A DNA stretch of 64,000 nt. It comes from Hyphomonadaceae bacterium. GTDB taxonomy: Bacteria > Pseudomonadota > Alphaproteobacteria > Caulobacterales > Aquidulcibacteraceae. Under the pieces are notes generated by a model that worked only from the letters and a program-made list of their open reading frames with translations, searched no databases and had not been told where the DNA came from. Of the stretch, positions 31,249 to 49,486 are shown piece after piece. Position 1 is the first letter of the stretch, and every line of letters begins with the position of its first letter. The translations under genes and the position numbers were made by a program. The stretch is taken from NCBI GenBank assembly GCA_041398345.1, contig JAWKUY010000004.1:125026-189025 (forward strand), given 5' to 3'.

Positions 31249-31454
31249 GGGCTCCTCCTGCTATATTGGTCTTGCGGCGCGGCCCGCTCTGATGGAATGG
31301 TCCGCGCCGATTGAGGCTTATTTTCTAGGTTGTTGGTTTCACGCGGCATGTCTGTCAATCGATTGCCAGGAACTCCGGTAATATTTACCCTCAATTGCCG
31401 TCTTCCATGGATATTTTGTTCTCACCACCGTCTGTGCCGGACGGATTGGCGCAT

Positions 31455-32154
31455 ATGAACACCGCGCCCGCCTTCGACGCGCTCGGCCGGCCGCCGCACC
31501 TGCTGCTGGTGGATGACGACGACCGCATTCGCGAACTGCTTAAGCGCTACCTTGCGGGCGCCGGCGCCAGGGTGTCAGCCGCGGCCGACGCCGCCTCAGC
31601 GCGCCGGCTCCTCGATGGAATGGATTTCGACCTGCTCATTCTCGACGTCACGATGCCGGTGGAAGACGGTTTCTCGCTCGCCGAAAGCGTGCGCAGGACA
31701 TCCAAGGTGCCGATTGTGCTGCTCACGGCGCGCGGCATGCCGGAGGACCGCATCCGCGGGCTCTCGATCGGCGCCGACGACTACGTCGCCAAGCCGTTCG
31801 AACCCGCCGAACTCGCGCTTCGCATCAACGCCATTCTGCGCCGGACGGTGAGCACGCGGGGCGAGCCTGCCGAAATCATCACATTTGGCCCGTTCGCCTT
31901 CAACGGCGCGCGCGGGGAACTCACCCGCGAAGGCGCGCCCGTGCGGCTGACAGAAGCGGAAGTCGCGATGTTGCGCATCTTGGCCGCGCCCAGGCGACGT
32001 GATCGGCCAGCCGGGAGGAGCTGGCCAGCGCACCAGCCGTGCTCGAACGCTCAGTGGACAGTCACGCGGTTGCGCCGCAAGACGAGCTGATCCGCGCGCG
32101 CCCATCTATCTGCAGACGGTGCGCGGCGTCGGCTATAAGCTGGCGGCCGATTGA
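31455..32154 (+). pseudogene. OmpR-family response regulator, frameshifted in the winged helix (probably sequencing error)
   Basis: LLVDDD, LILDV, GADDYVAKPF; the C-terminal YLQTVRGVGYKL appears in another frame ending at TGA 32154. Confidence 0.8.
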
Positions 32155-33482
32155 TGCCCAAACGCTTCCGGTTTCGCGACTTTCTCCCCAAGGGGCTGTA
32201 CTGGCGCACGCTGCTGATCATCGTGGCCCCTGCCGCGATGTTACTGCAGCTCATTATCACGCTGGTGTTCTTGGACGACCAGTGGCAAGCGACTTCCCGA
32301 AGCGCATGAGCCAAGGCGTCGCCGCCGATGTCGCGCTCGTTCTTCAACTTTATGAGCGCGATCCAACGCCGGAAAACCTCGCAGCGCTGCGCGATTATGC
32401 GATGCGGCCGCTGCGGCTTGAAATAGAGCTGCAACGCGGGCGCGCCGCTGGCGATTGCGCGCTGCAGCGCAGTGAAACTCGACGCTCGATCGATACCTGC
32501 TGCGCTCGCTGCAGGGACGTCAATCGCGACGTCTGGTACGATTCCACCTGCCCCGGCTCGCAAGTGATTGTTATCGCGTGCCGACCCAGGACGGCGTGCC
32601 AGCTCAAAGCCTACCACCGGGACCGGGTGCAGGCGCTCGCGGGCCCGCTGTTCGTAGCCTGGATCATGGGCGCGACGATGTTCCTGATCGTCACGTCGAT
32701 CATCTTCATTCGCAATCAGGTGCGCCCCATCGAAGCTGGCTGACGCCATGGAGCGCTTTGGGCGCGGCGGATTCCGGCTGGTTTCGCGTCGCGGCGCGCG
32801 AACAGCCGCGCGCTTGCGTTTCACGACATGCGTGACCGCATCAAGCGTCACATCGAGCAGCGCTCGCAATTGCTGGCGGGGGTCAGTCACGATTTGCGCA
32901 CGCCGCTGACGCGGCTGAAGCTCCAGCTGGCGATGATGCCGCAATCTCCGGAAATCGAGGACGCCAAGCGCGATCTCGCCGAGATGGAGCAGACGCTTGA
33001 GGAATATCTCGCGTTCGCCAAGGGGCTGACGGAGGAAGCGCCAGAGCAAGTCGATATCGGGGCGCTGGTCCGCGAAATCGTCGCCGACAACGTGCGCAGC
33101 GGCGCCGACGATGGCGGTGGAGACTTCCGCCCAGGTGACGACGCCGGGGCGCGCGCGCGCCGCTCTTCAAGCGCTGCCTCGCCAATCTCATCGACAATGC
33201 CGCGGCCCATGGCGACAAGGTGCGGGTCTCCATCGCCAGCACGCCGGAGGTTGTCACGGTCGCCGTCGACGACAATGGCCCGGGCATGCCCGAAGAACTC
33301 TACGAAGAGGCGTTCCGCCCCTTCTCGCCTCGATCCAAACCCGCTCCCGCAATCAGAAAGGCGTAGGGCTCGGCCTGGCCATCGCGCGCGACGTGGCGCG
33401 CAGCCATGGCGGCGACATTCCTCCAGCCGCAGCGCGCTTGGCGAATGCGTGCAGCCATACTCGCATCCCACGGCCAGCCTAA
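32154..33482 (+). pseudogene. EnvZ-like sensor histidine kinase, multiply frameshifted (probably sequencing error)
   Basis: MPKRFRFRDFLPKGLYWRTLLII start, VSHDLRTPLTRL H-box, NLIDNA, DDNGPG and GVGLGLAIARD in different frames. Confidence 0.8.
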
Positions 33483-33569
33483 GGTTTGTGAGTAAGGCTG
33501 GCATTGCCGGGCCGCGGCGGGCTGCGGCGAGGTTGGCGCTGCGCCTCAGGGCGGCGTATAGGACATCCG

Positions 33570-34899
33570 ATGGACGATATCGGCGAGCGCGACTGGTCCC
33601 GGGCGAGGATTTGCATCGACTTTGGCTGCGCGCTGTCAAAGGCGAGCATTGCCTTGACCCCACCCTGCCGGCTCGAGGTCGGCGTCGAAGCCGCTTCCAA
33701 TCGGGGCGATATCGAGCGCCGAGCAGCATCGCTGCTGACGCCTTCGGTGCTCTATGTCGATGCGGGCGCCTCTATTTGGCCCGGCTGCGCCCGGAAACGC
33801 GCCCGCCGCGGCATCGAGGACGCACGCGATCCGTGCCATACTGTCCATTCAAGACGGTGCTGGGATCGCCACGAATGTTGAAGCGCTGGTCGCAAGCCCG
33901 TCCTTCCATGGATCCGACCGGCACGTTCCGTCAGCGTGACGCGTTGGTGCTCTATCTCGCCTATCTCGCGACCAGCTGATCCGCGAGGCTGTTGAACTGG
34001 CGCCTAACATGCCGCGCGGGGTCGCCAATGCGCGGCGCCGCTATACGAGCGGTATGGCGGCGCGGCGGCAATGTGGATTTGGCGTTCGAAGCCATCTTCA
34101 ACAAGGGCGCTGCGATTTCTTCGCCGCAAAGCTGTTCCTTGAACAGCAGGAAGGCATTTCTATCGCCCAGTGCGCCGGATGCGCTCAATCGTGCAGCCGC
34201 TTCGCCCGGTAGCGGCAATTCTCCTCGAGACGGGCGATGTTTGAACTCCGCGGCTGTTGCATCGTTGTCACCGCCGCGTGGCGGTCAGTGTCGACATCGG
34301 CGCCGGCACCACCGACATCGCCGCGTTCGATTTTGACGAGCCTCAGCCTTGAGCGAAATCGAAAGCGAAGCGCGCCAATGCAGTGCGCTGGCGGGCGATG
34401 AGGTTGATCGCATTCTCATCCAGGCTCATGCTGCGCAAGATCGGCGGCGGTAACGTGCAGGGAAGACGCCAAGACCTTGCGCGCCGCGCGCCCTCACCGC
34501 GCGCGACCTCAAGAAAGACATTTTCAGGCACGGGAAGTGCACGCTCAAAATGGGCTGGCGCACGATCAACCTCATCGGCGCGAAGAGCTACAGACGACCC
34601 CAATTTCACACACGCACGTACCACCAGGCCGCTCTGGGCCAGACTATCGCCATGACACCGCACGCGCCGTCGCAGCGCGTGCGCGCGGCGCCGACACCAT
34701 CGACATCGTGCTGGCCGGGCGGCGCGCATCTTCCACCTTGGCGCAGCTCGCAGCTTGCCGGCAACCCGGCGTGGCCCGGGGCCTGAAGCTGCGCATAAGC
34801 GCGCTGTACCAACCCCTCTACACCAGCGTTGATGTCTCGCTCCGCGATGTCTTCCCGCAGATTTCGATGTCCGTCAGCGGCATGCCCTTGTCGAGATGA
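33570..34899 (+). pseudogene. Hsp70/actin-fold ATPase-like protein, multiply frameshifted
   Basis: Fragments RICIDFG.ALSKAS (phosphate-1), VDIGAGTTD (phosphate-2), AGDEVDR and IVLAG scattered over three frames. Confidence 0.55.
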
Positions 34900-34950
34900 T
34901 GCCCGCGCGCCTGCACAGCGCCCGCGCGCCGCCAGCCGCTCTGTGGTTTC

Positions 34951-36375
34951 TCAAGGCGCCCCGTGCTCGGTTGGCGTAGGCATGCGGTTGTAGGCGTCCA
35001 GAGCCGCGATCTTGTAGGCTTCAGCGAGCGTTGGATAGTTGAAGGTGTTCTCGACGAAATAGTCGAGCCCGCCGCCAAGATTGAGCACCGCCTGGCCGAT
35101 ATGAATGAGTTCGGTCGCGCCCTCGCCCACGATGTGCACGCCCAGGAGGCGGCGCGTCTCCAGCGCAAAGATCATTTCATGAAGCCGGAATTGAGGCCCA
35201 TGATGGCCGCGCGACGTTTCGCGGAAACGGGCGATGCCGGTCTCGTAGGGGATCGCCTTCTCCGCGCACCTGCTCTTCGGTCGCCTTACGGTCGAGATTT
35301 CAGGCACCGAATATATGCCATAGGGGAAGATTCCGGCGGCGTGCGCGGCCTCTCAGCGTGGCAAGCCGCGATGCGCCCTGCTCCATTATGAGGTGGACGC
35401 AAGGCTCGGAAAGCCCACGACATCTCCACCGTAGATGTGATCGACCTTCGTCCGGAATGTCGCCTTGTCCGCTGATGCGGCCGCGCGCTCATCGGCGTGC
35501 AGCCCGCCGCTGCGAGGTTGAGCGATGCGGTCGAACCCGTGCGTCCGGCCGCGAACAAAACCATGTCAGCGGCGATCTGGCGGTGATCTTCAAGCTGCAG
35601 CACGCGAGCGCCGATCTTTTCAACGCTCTTGGCCTTGCTTTGGAACCTGAGGCTCACGCCGCGATCGCGCAGATGGTGGATGGTCAGCATCCACCAATTC
35701 CCGGTCGACAAAGCCCAGCAGGCTCTCGCCCGGCTCCACCACGTCACCTTCACATCCCGGGGCCGAGAAGATGGTGGCGTACTCAATGCCGATCACGCTC
35801 GCGCGCCGATAACGGCGGCAAGCGAACGCGGCAGCCGGCAGAGATCGAGGATTTCGTCAGCATCGACGACGCTCTCGCCGTCAAACGGAATATGGGCGGG
35901 CCGATAGGGCTGGGTCAAACCGCCAAAATGACGCGCTCGCCGTGATGAGCCAGGTGGCGCACGTCCCCGTTCTCGCTGGTGACTTCGATGGCATGCGGCC
36001 CAGAAAGCGCGCGCGCGCCGCGCCATACCAGACCACCTGGTTGCGCGCACCAACTGATGCTCCAACACCTCCACCTCGCGCCGGTCGAGCGTGATCTGCA
36101 AGCGCCAGCGCAAATCCTCGGCGGCCAATGTCACTCCTTGGTGTTGCGATGCACGCGCGCCCATAGAAGCCCCGCTCGCGACCAGCCGACAGGTTGAGCC
36201 TGGTTTCGCGCGCAGGGTTTTCGACAGGGTTGTTCCGGTGTGGACACAAACGCCGCCGACTTGGCATGGCCGCGCTCGATGACGAGCACGCTCTTCTTGA
36301 ACTTGGCTGCCCTGCACGGCCGCGCCGCCCGGCGGGGCCGGAGCCAATGACGATGAGATCGAAATGCTGCGCCAT
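34951..36375 (-). pseudogene. sthA: Soluble pyridine nucleotide transhydrogenase, multiply frameshifted (probably sequencing error)
   Basis: MAQHFDLIVIGSGPAG, GGVCVHTGT, GEGATELIHIGQ, TFNYPTLAEAYKIAALDA. Confidence 0.85.
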
Positions 36376-36399
36376 GGCGGGATGCTTGGGCCACACCGC

Positions 36400-36645
36400 T
36401 CGCCAGAAGCCGTTGCTGCTTGGCGCCGGCGCAAACGTGAAGCTGGCCAGCTTGCGGCCGAGATCGGTGGCGGCGTGGGACCAGCCGGTGTTCAAGCGTG
36501 CGAGTTCGGGCAGCCACCAGTTCGTCGTATTGGATCGCCGCCATCGCCAGCACCATAAGGCCGCCCCCGCCAGCGCGCGCCGTTGCGCGTCAAGCACCGC
36601 GCACGCGTGTCCTTTGCTCAGTCGATTGAGAGCAGCAGTGAGCAT
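36400..36645 (-). CDS. Small hypothetical protein, probably frameshifted; 3' end uncertain
   Basis: AGAGG RBS before ATG 36645; fragments MLTAALNRLSK / MVLAMAAIQYDELVAAR / DLGRKLASF in alternating frames. Confidence 0.35.
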
Positions 36646-36742
36646 GGACGCCTCTGGCTAATGCGCGTCACTTTGCGCGCGAAGCGTAAACAAGTGCTCA
36701 CCAAAAGGTTTACGCAAGCGCGCAGCGCACTCCAAGTGCAGT

Positions 36743-37741: not shown

Positions 37742-38563
37742 TCAAGCCTTGCCCAGATCGCGCGAGCGCTGCGCGGCAGCCGCGACGGCGCGGCGCAGCA
37801 GCGGGCCCAGGCCATCGGCGCTGGCGAGAATATCGAGCGCGGCCTCTGTGGTGCCGCCGGGCGACATCACCTGCTTGCGCAAGACGCTGGCGCTCTCACC
37901 GGTCTCCAGCATCAGCGCGCCAGCGCCCGCCACCGTCGCGTTGGCCAGGCGCACGGCGGTTTCCTTGTCGAGCCCTTCTTGCTCGGCCGCGGCGGCGAGC
38001 ACCTCTGCGAGCAGGAACACATAGGCAGGGCCCGAGCCAGACACCGCCGTTACGGCATCCAGCAGCCGTTCCGCCGTCAGCGGTTCGACAGCGCCCAACG
38101 GCGCCAGCAATTGCTCCACCAGGCGCTTGTCTTGCTCCGTACATGCAGGAGACGCCACATAGGCGGTCACGCCGCGCCCGATGCGCGCAGGCGTGTTCGG
38201 CACGCAGCGCACCACGCGCTGAGCGCCCAGTTCGCGCGAAAGCGTTTCGATGGGAATGCCGGCCATCACAGAAAGGATGCGCGTATCGGGACCAACGAAG
38301 CGGCGCGCGCCGGCGGCGGCGGCGGCGAACATTTGCGGCTTCACCGCCAGCACCACGACGTCCGCGGGCCCCGGATCGGGGGGATTAAGCACCGCCCCGG
38401 CTGCATCAAGTTCGCGCTCAAGTTCGGGATCGAAGTTTGGCTCGACGACTGTGAGCGTCAGCCCCCCGCCCTTGCGTACAGCTTCAAGCCAGCCGCGCAC
38501 GAGCGCCCCGCCCATGGCGCCGGCGCCGACCAGTGCAATGGACGGGGCTTCAAGATCGCTCAC
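37742..38563 (-). CDS. proC: Pyrroline-5-carboxylate reductase
   Basis: GAGAMG, LAVKPQ, PNTPA, SGSGPAY, SPGGTT. Confidence 0.95.
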   Translation of the reverse strand: MSDLEAPSIALVGAGAMGGALVRGWLEAVRKGGGLTLTVVEPNFDPELERELDAAGAVLNPPDPGPADVVVLAVKPQMFAAAAAGARRFVGPDTRILSVMAGIPIETLSRELGAQRVVRCVPNTPARIGRGVTAYVASPACTEQDKRLVEQLLAPLGAVEPLTAERLLDAVTAVSGSGPAYVFLLAEVLAAAAEQEGLDKETAVRLANATVAGAGALMLETGESASVLRKQVMSPGGTTEAALDILASADGLGPLLRRAVAAAAQRSRDLGKA

Positions 38564-39066
38564 GCTTCTCCGCAGGTCTCGAACAGAGCGGCCTGCGATG
38601 CGCTCTCGGCCGACATGCCGCCGAGAATAAGGAAATGAAACGCCGGCTGGAAGCGCTCTGCTGCATCAAGTGCGGCCGCCAGCATGGCCTGAATTTCACC
38701 GATCGAGATTTCATCGCGCCCGATCATCGGCATGGCGTGACGGAAAATGATCGTGCCGTCATCGGACCACACGTCGAAATGCCCAAGCCACAGATTTTCG
38801 TTGATCAGCCCCGCCAGGCGCACGGCCTCGACGCGCCGTGACACCGGCGCCTGAATGTCGAAGCCCAGCGTAAACAGCAGCGCGGGCAGTTCGTGCCGGT
38901 ACGAGAAATAGCCGACCGTCTCGCCCCACGAGCATTTGAACGAGAAATGAACATCGCCGTCCTCGGCGCGTTCACACTGGAAGCGGTCGTCGGAGCCGAT
39001 CACGGCCTCCACCGTCTCCATTGGGTCGGACGGCGCCTCAGCCTCGTCGTCGAGCCACAGATCCAT
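38560..39066 (-). CDS. YbjN domain protein
   Basis: INENLWLGHFDVW motif; conserved neighbour of proC in alphaproteobacteria. Confidence 0.85.
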   Translation of the reverse strand: MDLWLDDEAEAPSDPMETVEAVIGSDDRFQCERAEDGDVHFSFKCSWGETVGYFSYRHELPALLFTLGFDIQAPVSRRVEAVRLAGLINENLWLGHFDVWSDDGTIIFRHAMPMIGRDEISIGEIQAMLAAALDAAERFQPAFHFLILGGMSAESASQAALFETCGEA

Positions 39067-39224: not shown

Positions 39225-39845
39225 TCATGGCGTGCAACGCACCACCGCCTTGGCCCATTCAGCACCGCCGAGCGGGCGCCCGGTCGAGGAGGCGCGGCGC
39301 AACTTCTTCAGTGCTTCAGCGCCGACGTCCGTCTCAAAGAACCCGCCGAACCCACGTGGAAATCGCCGCAAAAGCGGCGGTGTACGCACAAGTGCGTCGT
39401 CACGCCCTGACAAATGCGCGCGCACACTGGACCAAGGCCACTCCTCTGCACGCGTGACGAGCCCAGCACGCACCGGATTGAGCCCGACATAGCGGCTGGC
39501 CTGCACGAAATAATCCTCGTCCATCGGATAAGAAGCAAAGCGCCCCTGCCAAAGATAGCCGCGCCAGCCCTCGCGCTTGTTCACCTCGAACGTATAGCGC
39601 CAGTGCAGCGGGGCGATTGCTGCGCGCAGGCCGGCCTCGCCTTTTGGTGTGAGAATGAGGTGAACGTGATTGGGCATGAGGCAATAGCCCCAGCACTCAA
39701 CCTCAGCCTTCGCGCACCATTCCGACGCAAGTTGCAAGTAGCGCAGATAATCGGCCTCACTGAAGAACGTGCGCTGGCGGCGATTGCCGCGTTGCGTGAC
39801 ATGATGAGGCGTGTTGGGCGCCACGATCCTGGCCAATCGCGCCAT
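39225..39845 (-). mobile_element. Y1 HUH transposase (REP-associated tyrosine transposase / IS200-superfamily)
   Basis: MARLAR..HHVTQRGNRRQ, CLMPNHVH (HUH), LWQGRF, RYVGLNPVRAGL (catalytic Tyr), WPWSS; own GGAG RBS. Confidence 0.9.
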
Positions 39846-39867
39846 TTCGCTTTCTCCCGCGCACAAT

Positions 39868-39882
39868 GTACACGTTTTGTTC
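39868..39882 (-). promoter_or_regulatory. Alphaproteobacterial LexA (SOS) box candidate
   Basis: GAAC-AAAACGT-GTAC on the minus strand (GAAC-N7-GTAC), 22 nt upstream of the transposase ATG. Confidence 0.55.
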
Positions 39883-39924
39883 CTCGGCGCAACAGCGTTC
39901 AAAAAGTGTGTGTCACCCTTTCCC

Positions 39925-40487
39925 TCGTCGATGTTGTTAATCCCCCGCAGATAGTTCGCATCAATACCCGCAATGCTCGTTACATTAGGGTTGGCGAGCG
40001 CTGCCTGCAATTCGACCGCACCGAATATCCTTCCTGGGTCCGCGCTTCCAACGAGAGTAGCTATCGGACCACTGAGAGAACCCACGAAACGCTGAGACGC
40101 TTGCCCCCAAAATGACGACGGTGTGTGCCCGGCGAATGACGCACCCCCCAAAAGTTCCCGCTGCAGCGCAGAATTGCCGTCGACGGCATCCAACAGAGCA
40201 TCCTTAAATGCTTGACTCGAAAGCAGCCGTCCCAGCGGCGTATCGTCAATTATCGCAACCTGCGGATTGTTGGTCGCGATGAGTCTTGCAATTTCGTCCG
40301 ACCCAAAAGGGCGGCCACTCGCCGACGTTCGAAATTCACCGCTGTACAGCACCCCCACCCTTCCCGTTGGAGCTCTTGCATCTGTCTGTTGGACCAGCGA
40401 TTCCAACTCCGCCAAACGCTGCTCCGACGGCAGACCATTAATTCGATCAAGCTCATCCAGCGCCTGCTGAAACGTCAAATTTGGCAT
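39925..40487 (-). CDS. ADP-ribosyl cyclase/NAD glycohydrolase-like (CD38-like) toxin domain, C-terminally truncated and in frame with the transposase
   Basis: VLYSG, IIDDTPLG, FWGQASQRF and FGAVE occur in the same order as CD38 LLWS, TLEDTLLG, FWKTVSRRF and FGSVE; lower GC than flanks. Confidence 0.6.
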
Positions 40488-40507: not shown

Positions 40508-40966
40508 TCAGTCGGAAAAAATGACTTCAACAGGACCAAGAGGCCCGTTGTTTGCGCTGCCGTACGCGCCCAAAGCGCCTTCAATCAGATCGCGCTCTCG
40601 CTCTACAGCCGCCGCACCCACACAACCATTCACGGCGTGGACCTTGAAAACTTGGCGACACTCAAGGTGACCGTTCGAAGTGCGCCCACCGGTGTTCTCT
40701 ATCGACAGAGTCTCACCCCAAAACTGTATGGGGGCCTGCGTAGCATGCCTGAGAATAAAGCGCGAATAGCCGGGCCCGGTTGTTTCGTCGAACAACTCCC
40801 ATCCGCTATCAGGATCCCAAGTTCGCTTCATCTTATAGTCGGATTGGAATGCCACGATATCCTCGCTCGACACTGTTCTTGCAGGCATCTGCACAATCAA
40901 CTGCTGCACGCTTTCGCCACTGTAATCGCGACTCATGATGGCGCAACCATCACCTGCAACAAACAA
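40508..40966 (-). CDS. Hypothetical protein, candidate immunity protein
   Basis: 152-aa lower-GC ORF between hlyD' and the toxin-like ORF, same strand, 20 bp gap to the toxin-like ORF. Confidence 0.55.
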   Translation of the reverse strand: MFVAGDGCAIMSRDYSGESVQQLIVQMPARTVSSEDIVAFQSDYKMKRTWDPDSGWELFDETTGPGYSRFILRHATQAPIQFWGETLSIENTGGRTSNGHLECRQVFKVHAVNGCVGAAAVERERDLIEGALGAYGSANNGPLGPVEVIFSD

Positions 40967-41005: not shown

Positions 41006-41560
41006 TCACCTTTCCCTCCCCGCTTCTTCCACGCGCCTTTGCAAGGGCGAGAGCAGAAACTCGATGATGCGGCGGCGCCCGGTTTTGATTTCCGCCGTCA
41101 CCGCCAATCCCGCCGTCAGGGCTTGCGCGCGCCCATCGACGTTAATCGAGACGTCGGCCAACTCAATACGCGCGGGGAACACCAGGCCGGTATTTTCATC
41201 TTGCACGGCGTCATGGCTTAGAAACGCCAGCCTTCCGGCGACGACGCCGTAACGCGTGAACGGAAACGCCTCCAGTTTCACCCGCACGTCCTGGCCTTCG
41301 TGAACAAAGCCGGCGTCGCGGTTCAAGACATTGGCCTCCACCACCAAAGTCGAGCCGTCGGGCACGATCACCAGGATCGGATCGGCCGGGCGCAGCACAG
41401 CGCCAACCGTGTGCACCTGCAATTGCTGCACAGTGCCGGTCGCGGGCGCGGTCAACACGGTGCGGGCGTTGCGGTCCTGCGCAATGGTGAGCTCTTCGCG
41501 GCGCAGGCGCGCGGCCGCATCGGCCTCGTTGAAGGCGTCAAGCTCAGGCCGCTTTGGAGT
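41006..41560 (-). pseudogene. hlyD: 5'-truncated HlyD type I secretion periplasmic adaptor
   Basis: LTAPATGTVQQLQVHTVGAV, KLEAFPFTRYG, EIKTGRRRIIEFLLSP; only about 185 C-terminal codons, frame closed by TGA at 41570-41572, no TM anchor. Confidence 0.85.
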
Positions 41561-41562
41561 GC

Positions 41563-41823
41563 TCAGGCCTCAGTCAAAGTCTTCAGCGCGGCCTCCAAAG
41601 CCTCGACGCGCTCACGCAGCGCATCGGCCTCAGCGCGCGCGGCGGCGGCCAATTCCTTCGCCGCCTCGAACTCATCACGGCCGACCAGGTCCATTTCCGC
41701 GACAAAACGATCAGCCTGAGCGCGCATGAAGCTCTTGGCCTCGGCGGAGGCGCCCTGCGCCATCCCCATCGCCCCCGTCATCAAACGGGCCAGATCATCG
41801 AACACCGAGCTTGTCGTTTGCAT
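41563..41823 (-). CDS. ubiK: Accessory factor UbiK family protein
   Basis: MQTTSSVFDDLARL..MDLVGRDEFEA..LRERVEALE; divergent from lgt. Confidence 0.85.
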   Translation of the reverse strand: MQTTSSVFDDLARLMTGAMGMAQGASAEAKSFMRAQADRFVAEMDLVGRDEFEAAKELAAAARAEADALRERVEALEAALKTLTEA

Positions 41824-47167: not shown

Positions 47168-49486
47168 ATGGTCATGACCACAGCCACGTTCGCCCGCGCC
47201 TGGTTGCACGTTCTCATCGCGCTGACGCTGGGCGCTTGCGCATCAGGCGGCGGGGGCGGCGCAGGATCGGGCGCTGTGTCACCGCCGCCAGCGCCCGCGC
47301 CGCTGCCTCCGCCTCCTCCACCGCCGCCTCCAGTGGCCGTGCCGCCATTGCCGCCGCCAGCGGCGGTGGGAACTTTTCCGGGCAGTTCGTCGGCGGAATA
47401 CACCAACAATTGGGGTGTTGAAGGCGTCAACGCTGACGCAGCCTGGCAGTACGAGAATGCGCACGGCGAAGGCGTCCTCATCGGCATCATCGATGATGGC
47501 ATCATCTTCGATCACCCGGAGCTGCAAGGGCGGATTTCGGCGGAATCCACCGACATCGTGCCGGGCCGCAACGCGCTGGTCTCCACCAACACGCATGGCG
47601 CCGAGGTTTCCTCTATCGTCGCCGCTAATTTCAATGGCGGCCAAACGGTCGGCGTTGCTTTCGGATCCACAATCCTGGCCGTGCGCGCCGACAACGGCAG
47701 CGAAGGTTTCAACGGCGGCGATCTCGCGGCGGCGTTGGATTACGCCGTCGCGCATGGCGTGCGGGTAGTCAATTTCTCGCTTGGAAGCAGCAACCCGACG
47801 CCCGGCGTGCTGCAGGATGCCATCCAGCGCGCGACGAATGCCGGCGTCATCATCGTGGTTTCAGCGGGCAATGACGGGCCTTCGGCCACGGAGCCCAATT
47901 ATCCTGGTTTTCTTGCGACCGATCCAACTGTTGCGCATGGCCTTGTGCTGGTCGCGGGCGGCACAAATCCCGATGGCAGTTTCAACACCCGCTCCAATCC
48001 AGCCGGCAGCACGCTTCAGTATTATCTGACCGCGCCGGGCTGGGGCATCGTTGTGCCCGACTATGGTCCGCCAGGACCTCTTCCCGGGTTTCAGCGCTGC
48101 TGGCCCGATCCAAACAACTGCACCGGGCTCGTCGAAATTCAGGGCACGTCCTATGCGTCCCCGCACGTCGCCGGCGCCATCGCGATACTGATGAGCGCGT
48201 TCCCTGGTCTCACGTCGCAGCAAGTTGTGCAGATACTCCTGCAGTCGACAGACGACACAGGCGCGGCCGGCGTTGATTCAGTCACCGGGCGCGGGCGGCT
48301 CAATCTCGGTCGCGCCTTCCAGCCCATAGGCACGGTTGCAGCGCCGCTCGTCGCCGGATTGCCCCACGTAATCGCCAGCACTCCCCTCGGGGTTGTTGGC
48401 GCGGCCTTTGGCGATGGCATGAGCGATGATCCCGGCGAATGGGCCGTTGCCGGCTTTGACGCCTTTGGTCGCACTTACGCGCTAGACCTCTCCAGCAACT
48501 GGCGCCGCCCTGCGCCTGGCCCCAGCCTCATCGCCCAGGCGCCCGCGCTCTGGAGCCAAGCGCACGCCAGCATCGCCTCCATGCAGATTGCGCCGGCGGA
48601 CGACGCCATGCCGGCCTCGCTGCGCCTGCAAATATCGCGAGAGGATATCGAACGCCCCGCGGTGCGCATCCAAGCACAGCTCGCGCCTGATTTGACGCTT
48701 TCGTTCGCAGCGGACGGCGCAGACGCCGCCGCCGTCGAAACGCCCGCCTCCGGCGGTCATCTCGCCTATCTCAACGCCGATCAAACCGTGCGCCTGACGC
48801 GGGCGTTTGGCGAACGCCTGACTGTTTCGGCAGCGCTTGAAACCCGCTCGAACGACCTGCTTGCGAGTGAGCAAGCCGGGCGCTCCGCCCAGTTGATCGA
48901 CGCAACGCTCACGCTGGGGAGCAACGCGTTCACGCTTAGCTATGGCCAGATGAGGGAAGAGCGCGGCCTGCTTGGCTTAACGTGGGACGATGCGCTCGGC
49001 GGCGCATCCGCAGGCGAAGTGCGTTTCGGGGCGCTATCGGGGCAGTTCGCCCTTCCGGCGGGCTGGCGCCTGGCCCTCAGCGGCGAATTCGGCGCCGGTG
49101 CGCTGGCGCCCCGCGGCTGGTTGAGCGGCGACGTCGCGACGACCGCATTCTCGCTCGAAGCGCGCCGGCGTGCGCCGTGGCTGGGCCTGAGCGGCGATAA
49201 TTTCTTGTCGCTCTCGGTGCGGCAGCCCTTGCGGATTGAATACGGCCTTCTGAGCGCACTGCTTCCAACCGCGACCCGCTACGGGCGCGAAAGCCTGACG
49301 TACGAGCCGCGCTTGATCGACGTCACCCCGTCTGGGCGCGAACTCCAATTCGGCGTGAGCTACACGCACGCGCAATCCAATTCAGCCTCGGCATTCCTCG
49401 ACGCCACGCTCATTCACGATCCAGGGCATGTCGCCGGGGCGGACGATCAAGCGCTGGTGCGCGGCGGCTTACGGATGCGGTTCTAA
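47168..49486 (+). CDS. S8 subtilisin-like serine peptidase lipoprotein with C-terminal beta-barrel-like domain
   Basis: Lipobox LGAC, Pro-rich linker, IIDDG / THG / SAGN / GTSYASPHVAG, terminal Phe. Confidence 0.85.
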   Translation: MVMTTATFARAWLHVLIALTLGACASGGGGGAGSGAVSPPPAPAPLPPPPPPPPPVAVPPLPPPAAVGTFPGSSSAEYTNNWGVEGVNADAAWQYENAHGEGVLIGIIDDGIIFDHPELQGRISAESTDIVPGRNALVSTNTHGAEVSSIVAANFNGGQTVGVAFGSTILAVRADNGSEGFNGGDLAAALDYAVAHGVRVVNFSLGSSNPTPGVLQDAIQRATNAGVIIVVSAGNDGPSATEPNYPGFLATDPTVAHGLVLVAGGTNPDGSFNTRSNPAGSTLQYYLTAPGWGIVVPDYGPPGPLPGFQRCWPDPNNCTGLVEIQGTSYASPHVAGAIAILMSAFPGLTSQQVVQILLQSTDDTGAAGVDSVTGRGRLNLGRAFQPIGTVAAPLVAGLPHVIASTPLGVVGAAFGDGMSDDPGEWAVAGFDAFGRTYALDLSSNWRRPAPGPSLIAQAPALWSQAHASIASMQIAPADDAMPASLRLQISREDIERPAVRIQAQLAPDLTLSFAADGADAAAVETPASGGHLAYLNADQTVRLTRAFGERLTVSAALETRSNDLLASEQAGRSAQLIDATLTLGSNAFTLSYGQMREERGLLGLTWDDALGGASAGEVRFGALSGQFALPAGWRLALSGEFGAGALAPRGWLSGDVATTAFSLEARRRAPWLGLSGDNFLSLSVRQPLRIEYGLLSALLPTATRYGRESLTYEPRLIDVTPSGRELQFGVSYTHAQSNSASAFLDATLIHDPGHVAGADDQALVRGGLRMRF

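Follow-up and report, generated by a model that had tools for sequence, protein, structure and literature searches.

Why should a toxin-like enzyme domain and a transposase share one open reading frame, and how did a piece of a toxin locus come to lie beside a transposase at all? The question is raised by a 420-aa read-through frame (39225..40487, minus strand) in the window, i.e. the whole 64,000-nucleotide stretch of DNA analysed here. The source genome is a 2.9-Mb metagenome-assembled genome (MAG) of 85% completeness.

The read-through frame and its parts

The frame has no internal stop on the minus strand (40487..39225), and stops are present on the plus strand. The preliminary description, which gave no strand, had reported such a stop-free chimera of an ADP-ribosyl cyclase (ARC) domain and a transposase, with a linker peptide read from the element's non-coding end, a ribosome site and ATG (39845) of the transposase's own, and a junction near 39925. 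All of this was borne out: the translation matches the quoted linker, a GGGAG ribosome site lies at 39858-39854, and the junction falls at 39923-39925. DNA similarity to stand-alone elements begins at 39922-39925, and the similarity of the closest full toxin locus to the stub runs out at about codon 185.

A stop codon or a misassembly at the junction had been raised as a concern. No stop is there, and a Logan contig from the public wastewater run X1, which may be the source sample of the assembly, spans 39781-40075 with 0 differences and 0 gaps, covering more than 140 nt on each side of the junction. Another contig, from run X4 of the same study (all runs belong to one study), crosses the left junction between a ubiK-like host gene and an hlyD fragment. 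Misassembly is unlikely since contigs from X1 and X4 bridge both junctions. A loose contig end was seen at 40444 in three runs. The RNA run X4 gave no contig over the ARC or transposase genes, where contigs cannot show absence, and its contig across the ubiK/hlyD junction may derive from DNA. A generic promoter and terminator scan, which found no promoter and no minus-strand terminator, is uninformative on expression. Neither the fusion nor the transposase by itself had an exact match in the searched collection.

The 5' stub of an RTX toxin gene, with a native ribosome site, makes up residues 1-188 of the frame (39924..40487, minus strand). It is a complete CD38-like ARC domain with Y48-S49-G50, W127, S131 and E159. 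Residues 1-190 gave sequence and profile matches to Tac1 (9OUF) and Pantoea ARCtox (9RO8), and a Pfam scan of the 420-aa frame found Y1_Tnp in the second half and no match in the ARC half. With 80 homologs as input, the ARC model reached pLDDT 93.8, and its fold aligns to 9OUF (Z 10.6, rmsd 3.1, 130 aligned), 9RO8 (Z 10.4) and CD38 (Z 8.9). The predicted catalytic E159 is invariant (79/79 homologs). Together with W127 it aligns with the essential Tac1 E573, the counterpart of CD38 E226, and the tryptophan preceding it, the Tac1 numbering being taken from the W540-E573 spacing. A second glutamate, Tac1 E516 or CD38 E146, promotes hydrolysis; its likely counterpart here is D81, placed by motif and not by superposition, in a column with D in 37 and N in 28 of the 79 homologs. 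ARC conservation stops near residue 180 and the predicted fold is complete, which agrees with the earlier view that the enzyme domain is whole at the junction. The companion claim that only a secretion tail was lost is wrong, as thousands of residues of RTX protein are gone and homologs are up to 4651 aa long.

The ARC family has 312 members at E 0.001. In the best 150 of these an N-terminal position is almost universal, and RTX motifs occur in 31 of the 38 proteins with at least 1000 residues. One full ARC locus has the order hlyD end, small gene, 4651-aa ARC-RTX gene, hlyC and a tolC-type gene. Given the N-terminal position of the domain, the RTX motifs and the full locus in homologs, residues 1-188 are, judged from sequence, the head of an RTX toxin secreted by the type I route, with the cut after codon 188. 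Of wider interest is that ARC NADase domains occur N-terminally on type I RTX proteins, with an upstream candidate antidote family that has no Pfam model. A single-query search of 148 family genomes found ARC in this genome only, and a profile search of 301 order genomes found it here and in one complete genome (G071). In the latter (L262) a full hlyD is followed by a distant ARC-headed frame of 3271 aa, with an unrelated small gene of 135 aa, which suggests that the upstream partner of ARC-RTX toxins is not always of the same family.

The gene upstream of the stub (40508..40855, minus strand) is intact, encodes 115 aa from a GTG start and is predicted to be the cognate immunity gene. It had been described as an ORF at 40508..40966; the start is most likely GTG 40855, at which a ribosome site is present and to which the first residue of its homologs corresponds. 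In three independent loci such homologs, with 32-42% identity, immediately precede an ARC gene. A homolog search with the small protein returned itself only, an Atlas search gave only leads below 0.9, and no Pfam family was found for it. A complex model of the ARC domain and the small protein scored 0.58 against 0.02 for the best control, with at least 61% of contacts shared between runs and partner pLDDT of at least 73. Among 80 solved complexes 58 reached the mark applied to this score, and among 110 mismatches 2 did; at scores of 0.60 or lower it was reached by 7 of the 80 and by both mismatches, and hence 0.58 is a weak value. The co-occurrence and this weak complex model point to the 115-aa protein as the predicted cognate immunity of the ARC toxin. 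A homolog of its gene stands as an orphan in an hlyD-type cassette of a 100% complete genome (G072), in which a profile search found no ARC match.

The remainder of the frame, residues 215-420, is a 206-aa Y1 HUH transposase of the TIRYT or RAYT-like kind (39225..39845, minus strand; Pfam Y1_Tnp, E 3e-10) with intact motifs H274-V-H276 and Y333-V-G-L-N-P (Y333xxxNP). It has 75-89% identity to stand-alone genes in about a dozen relatives and is single copy in the genome. No Pfam match to an HTH was found in the ~85 residues after the Pfam core. Its C-terminus is 6-22 residues shorter than in intact relatives, and the right-hand repeats, present as paired downstream copies in relatives, are missing; this element is a damaged member of a TIRYT-type group. 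The left terminal repeat (39902..39922, minus strand; core GAAAGGGTGACACACAC) forms an imperfect hairpin (z -2.5), is conserved upstream of unfused relatives, and has the cargo cut directly 5' of it. There are 3 single copies of the repeat in the 2.9-Mb genome and 33 in 148 family genomes, with 0 matches in a reversed-control search. One further copy (L143:1501, contig C18) lies between host genes with no evident cargo. Another (L138:508-1360, contig C5, after uvrB) has 1 kb of low-GC DNA upstream, holding a frameshifted SIR2/AbiH-like remnant (weak Pfam and PADLOC matches), and on that account anti-phage genes may be captured too.

The 78 nt between the toxin stub and the transposase ATG hold the repeat, a TTG box, GAAC-N7-GTAC and the ribosome site, all conserved. 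The promoter-like region (39854..39892, minus strand) consists of the conserved columns of the TTG -35 box, a putative LexA box at 39882-39868 and the ribosome site. The identical variant of this box is found upstream of recA in this genome, and it fits the alphaproteobacterial LexA motif GTTC-N7-GTTC (PMC8565304). The upstream repeat has a GGGGWSAS-like core with one mismatch here (GGTGACAC), and relatives and distant homologs have GGGGACAC or GGGGACAG. The canonical REPIN-RAYT model for Groups 2 and 3 (NF047646) gives 65.6 bits, below the cutoff of 80, and an abundant cognate REP/REPIN population is absent, with 3 single repeats in 2.9 Mb. Judged by its repeat core, its few copies and an NF047646 score under the cutoff, the transposase is probably a TIR-associated Y1 enzyme (TIRYT, Quentin subclass 2.1), or Group 1 RAYT, rather than a canonical REPIN-RAYT. 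A Group 2 REP identity of the repeat was set aside on the same three grounds.

The preliminary description had proposed looking for the same fusion elsewhere. The junction is real, and the fusion was found nowhere else: it occurs once, in this genome, across the relatives and homolog sets searched. A Y1 domain was found in 0 of 151 ARC homologs examined and an ARC domain in 0 of 17 long Y1 proteins, of which 4 have N-terminal and 13 C-terminal extensions with partners unrelated to each other (radical SAM, cupin, M48 peptidase, permease). In 7 of 21 close relatives the spacer likewise has no stop in the transposase frame, and two of these seven spell a near-identical linker with no in-frame toxin attached. 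Toxin stubs cross the repeat in six hlyD-type cassettes: two of the stubs stop within it, three continue in other frames or without a transposase, and only the present one is fused in frame. The in-frame state is thus not beyond chance expectation, and one fusion in such a set is a chance outcome. Since the DNA signals of the spacer are conserved in unfused relatives, we read the linker as the element's repeat, promoter, putative LexA box and ribosome site translated as codons. The fusion gene looks real but accidental, a by-product of cassette formation, and most of the transposase probably comes from translation at its own start. The fusion carries little weight in itself, and serves as a warning that long Y1 'fusion' proteins in databases are mostly read-throughs.

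The insertion and its counterparts in relatives

On the right the insertion is flanked by the host gene ybjN (38560..39066, minus strand; Pfam YbjN), present in 76 of 80 genomes of the genus. The gene on the left (41563..41823, minus strand) lies near ybjN in most relatives; it has no profile match, and from its sequence type we take it to be ubiK/BMFP-like. The two are about 150-330 nt apart in most of 29 relatives examined, so the whole 2.3 kb was inserted. Next to the ubiK-like gene is an hlyD 3' fragment (41006..41543, minus strand; Pfam HlyD_3, TIGR01843 below cutoff) that covers codons ~288-466 and has no 5' part. Of its 538 nt, 474 nt are identical to an intact hlyD on contig C13 of the same genome, and the last 67 nt diverge. 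On C13, hlyB-hlyD is followed by a different small gene and then by a 4387-aa RTX gene with a different head. At the left edge of the cassette, half a copy of an unrelated second REP family (its 5' part, 41539..41552, minus strand) meets the hlyD fragment at a 5-nt microhomology, GCTTG. This family has the core CCTGAGC-NN-GTCGAAGG and 16 full copies at 16 sites in the genome. No long repeat or target duplication bounding the insert was found. The GC content of the cargo is 0.56 versus 0.65 for the window. A chance insertion had been offered as one option for the fusion. Chance read-through stands; a simple transposon insertion into a resident toxin gene does not, because the whole 2.3 kb sits between host genes adjacent in relatives and because the hlyD piece duplicates the gene on C13.

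Several further observations concern this neighbourhood. In G089 the gap between ubiK and ybjN is occupied by an unrelated RAYT-like gene that has its own repeats (L106:2605-3448), and in G075 by a metallo-hydrolase-like gene (L107); these different inserts mark it as an insertion hot spot. The C13 island (L003:91-16001) consists of a tyrosine integrase-like gene, a LuxR/LuxI-like pair, hlyB, hlyD, a 231-aa lipoprotein-like gene and the 4387-aa RTX gene. The head of this RTX protein has no Pfam match, and it is probably another N-terminal polymorphic toxin with upstream immunity. Elsewhere in the window, a two-component pair, a transhydrogenase-like gene and others appear split into many frames at 31395-36650, where assembly indels are possible, and a 772-aa subtilase (47168-49486; Pfam Peptidase_S8) has a proline-rich N-terminus and a probable outer-membrane C-terminal domain.

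The layout recurs in relatives: an hlyD 3' fragment, an intact small gene and a toxin 5' stub cut at the repeat, followed by the transposase. We collected 19 loci by the transposase alone, i.e. close transposases from loci of the Hyphomonadaceae type with at least 1.5 kb of upstream sequence. Eight of them have a same-strand hlyD 3' fragment 0.5-3.1 kb upstream; the chance of such a fragment is about 1.4e-4 per site, though kin are not independent. Six more carry other toxin-locus pieces (LysM/Rhs fragments in 4, PT-HINT with ankyrin in 1, SMI1 in 1), and the remaining 5 have no recognisable toxin-locus cargo. In a survey that started from hlyD, with a relaxed repeat pattern and with 2 of its 24 fragments found via the transposase, a terminal repeat follows 18 of the 24 at a distance of 0.4-3 kb, and a transposase is present in 9. 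A match inside the RTX frame of G088 was discounted here, and the G088 repeat at 3.0 kb was used.

Cargo genes match Imm11 (4 cases), SMI1_KNR4 and ankyrin, and the stubs include AHH and RTX types. The small gene is intact wherever called, and hlyD and the toxin are cut at varying points. Toxin stubs in the hlyD cassettes range from none to ~360 codons, and the break falls at different codons in the homologous modules of G083 and G086. Repeats lie 14-19 nt from the cut hlyD in three genomes (G083, G125, G026), and in G057 a repeat pair stands directly before it. Upstream GC is lower than downstream GC in 18 of the 19 loci (mean 0.576 vs 0.648). The downstream genes are ordinary and differ between genomes, the commonest families being housekeeping ones, and the cassettes are spread over a dozen or more distinct host sites. 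Loci with different types of cargo are intermingled on the transposase tree, and the nearest relative of the present transposase carries an Rhs piece. An hlyD fragment is in most cases closest to another copy from its own genome, G107 and G090 being exceptions. The mixed cargo, varied sites and low upstream GC favour repeated acquisition over one inherited event.

Remnants of one integrase-core (rve) element were seen at the far cargo edge of six loci (L145, L153, L183, L201, L205 and L230) and may be a second type of anchor for recombination. In G135, a second module of hlyD fragment, Imm11-like gene and toxin stub lies inside an RTX locus (contig C3, L235:6900-8330), and its immunity gene is nearly identical to the one in the repeat-bound cassette of that genome (L100). 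Apart from its mirrored order, this module is similar to the orphan modules of CDI systems. Distant homologs of the transposase (50-62% identity) keep the repeat, mostly lack the LexA box and cargo, and mostly have ordinary neighbours; the capture claim is therefore limited to the close clade. A 53%-identical transposase with a different repeat has an hlyD fragment and a small gene upstream (L181:124-2404), and from this arrangement the pattern may extend beyond the family.

Proposed origin of the cassette

The association of toxin-locus fragments with the transposase repeat is robust, and a mechanism can be drawn from known HUH chemistry. The most likely reading, to which we give somewhat better than an even chance, is that an orphan-immunity cassette was captured by an SOS-regulated Y1 transposase and that its immunity gene was kept by selection. 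The evidence for capture is comparative and comes mostly from MAGs of one family. In outline, the entry of foreign single-stranded DNA or DNA damage would induce a LexA-repressed, normally idle transposase, which would cut beside its hairpin and join a donor strand there. For the far end, a second repeat, microhomology or recombination within a resident hlyD fragment might provide the resolution, and such a resident fragment may serve as an anchor in later replacements. Since the operon order is hlyB-hlyD-immunity-toxin, any fragment with a whole immunity gene has an hlyD tail and a toxin head. The immunity gene would be retained for its protection against the RTX toxin of a rival strain. Here the cut would have fallen after the ARC domain, in the one frame that reads through the spacer. 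If transcription from ubiK ran on, a stub or a fusion could be made, an antidote would then be needed as a local side effect, and any read-through product would be neutralised by the upstream 115-aa protein.

Points against the capture reading are that hlyD recurs more often than random capture would give, which calls for an extra step, and that the present copy has no cognate repeat at its left edge and has lost its right-hand repeats. Many cargo genes belong to no family, and there the putative 'immunity' label comes from position. We also consider that a clade of TIRYT/Group 1 RAYT transposases was domesticated as an SOS-inducible capture device giving heritable, replaceable immunity to rival bacteria, a tentative proposal that falls a little short of an even chance. 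If true, this would be the first concrete host benefit of a RAYT-family enzyme, and an acquired defence built on an HUH endonuclease. Single-copy RAYTs have been argued to benefit their host, with the benefit stated to be unclear (Bertels; 10.1101/119735; 10.1101/2021.07.10.451892). For one clade, this locus and its relatives would offer a specific answer on RAYT persistence in the form of a DNA site, a regulator and a selectable cargo.

Selfish mobilisation with no host function is rather unlikely but has real points in its favour. The repeats would insert in toxin islands, which are low in GC, dispensable or single-stranded during transfer, and would move composite units between two repeats; immunity genes would survive as antidotes to the stub or through their short length. 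Cassettes are indeed bounded by repeats at both ends in several genomes and sit at a dozen or more host sites, integrase-core remnants are found as cargo in 6 loci, and the Group 1 RAYTs count as one of the most IS-like groups (10.1101/119735). Yet the cargo is one-sided, upstream only, and the transposase is single copy here. Moreover, cassettes in G072, G057 and L154 have no toxin stub or only a few codons of one, so self-protection cannot explain the kept gene. Toxin switching is less probable still. It takes the cassettes as silent stores in which the hlyD fragment is a handle and the stored module replaces the one at the C13 RTX locus. The 474 nt of hlyD identity with C13, the different small gene and toxin head there on a related RTX body, and the second module within the RTX locus of G135 all fit this. 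Against it, our stub and the C13 RTX share no homology at which a second crossover could occur, a toxin domain would not fit into many of the stubs, and a full hlyD of the matching type was not found in several carriers.

The preliminary description had offered as an alternative a cytoplasmic NADase tethered to a single-stranded-DNA-binding HUH protein, i.e. a selected addiction or abortive-infection (Abi) fusion that acts by NAD depletion, the antitoxin being encoded upstream. In its favour, the stub has a whole ARC domain with the predicted catalytic glutamate and a native ribosome site, a candidate antidote gene lies upstream, the junction is real, and a de facto toxin-antitoxin effect is possible if the stub is expressed. 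We nevertheless regard such a fusion as very improbable. It is a single instance and shows no conserved architecture across independent genomes; its linker is accounted for by DNA signals; the spacer is open in 7/21 relatives and only 1/6 repeat-crossing stubs is in frame. A PADLOC search of the locus, with a library limited to described systems, found no match. Least credible of all is an assembly chimera of the C13 RTX locus, a foreign contig and contig C4. The MAG is incomplete and the 474-nt exact repeat between contigs could invite one, but separate contigs cross the toxin/transposase and ubiK/hlyD junctions without differences, and the same layout is present in many other assemblies.

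Comparison with known systems

The closest enzymes are those of the TIRYT elements or TIRtrons (PMC3733652), TnpA-Y1 subclass 2.1 (PMC6006769) and Group 1 RAYT (10.1101/119735). The shared features are the HUH and Y---NP motifs, low copy number, flanking inverted repeats, a GGGGWSAS-like core and small repeat families. The available parts of these papers describe no cargo, toxin-locus link or LexA box, whereas all three features are found here. TIRYT-type repeats stand on both sides; in the present copy the right-hand ones are absent, and they are present in relatives.

The ARC domain shares with Tac1 (PMC12356396, 9OUF) and Pantoea ARCtox (PMC12605009, 9RO8) the CD38-like fold, the glutamate and the tryptophan, and here too a candidate antidote gene is adjacent. 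Those were reported as C-terminal domains on LXG, PAAR, VgrG and CdiA proteins, whereas here the domain is N-terminal on type I RTX proteins; the word 'RTX' has 0 hits in the text of PMC12605009. In addition, the second glutamate appears to be Asp or Asn here, and the candidate antidote is upstream and has no Pfam family. Our literature search, with subscription journals largely outside its scope, found nothing on N-terminal RTX toxins with immunity and nothing linking RAYT or TIRYT to immunity genes or gene capture.

Gene capture and SOS control each have precedents. ISCR/IS91 elements use an HUH enzyme for one-ended DNA capture, and integron integrases are SOS-regulated. The cassette would share with them one-sided capture by an HUH enzyme and SOS control of a gene-acquiring enzyme, but it has a Y1 enzyme in place of a Y2 rolling-circle one, no attC sites, and immunity instead of resistance cargo. 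CDI and Rhs systems have orphan toxin-immunity modules that are able to replace the active one. These orphan modules (PMC3482391) share with our cassette a truncated toxin with an immunity gene after a conserved handle, while here the order is a mirror image, the site lies apart from the parent locus, and a transposase repeat forms the end.

The nearest functional parallels are rAID-1 of Bacteroidales (10.1101/471110) and the polyimmunity loci (PMC3482391), which likewise have low-GC orphan immunity genes beside a recombination enzyme and signs of repeated acquisition. The rAID-1 enzyme is a XerD-like tyrosine recombinase, in contrast to the Y1_Tnp HUH transposase found here. rAID-1 also has two or more co-directional immunity genes, in clean arrays of up to 31 genes, while our low-GC cassette has one; the cassettes usually hold one gene with ragged pieces of its neighbours, the cargo lying upstream, and only G088 has three candidate immunity genes. 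Unlike in rAID-1, the donors appear to be alphaproteobacterial type I RTX and Rhs loci. By analogy, then, the cassette may work like rAID-1 and the polyimmunity loci, yet in its enzyme, gene number and arrangement it falls outside what defines them.
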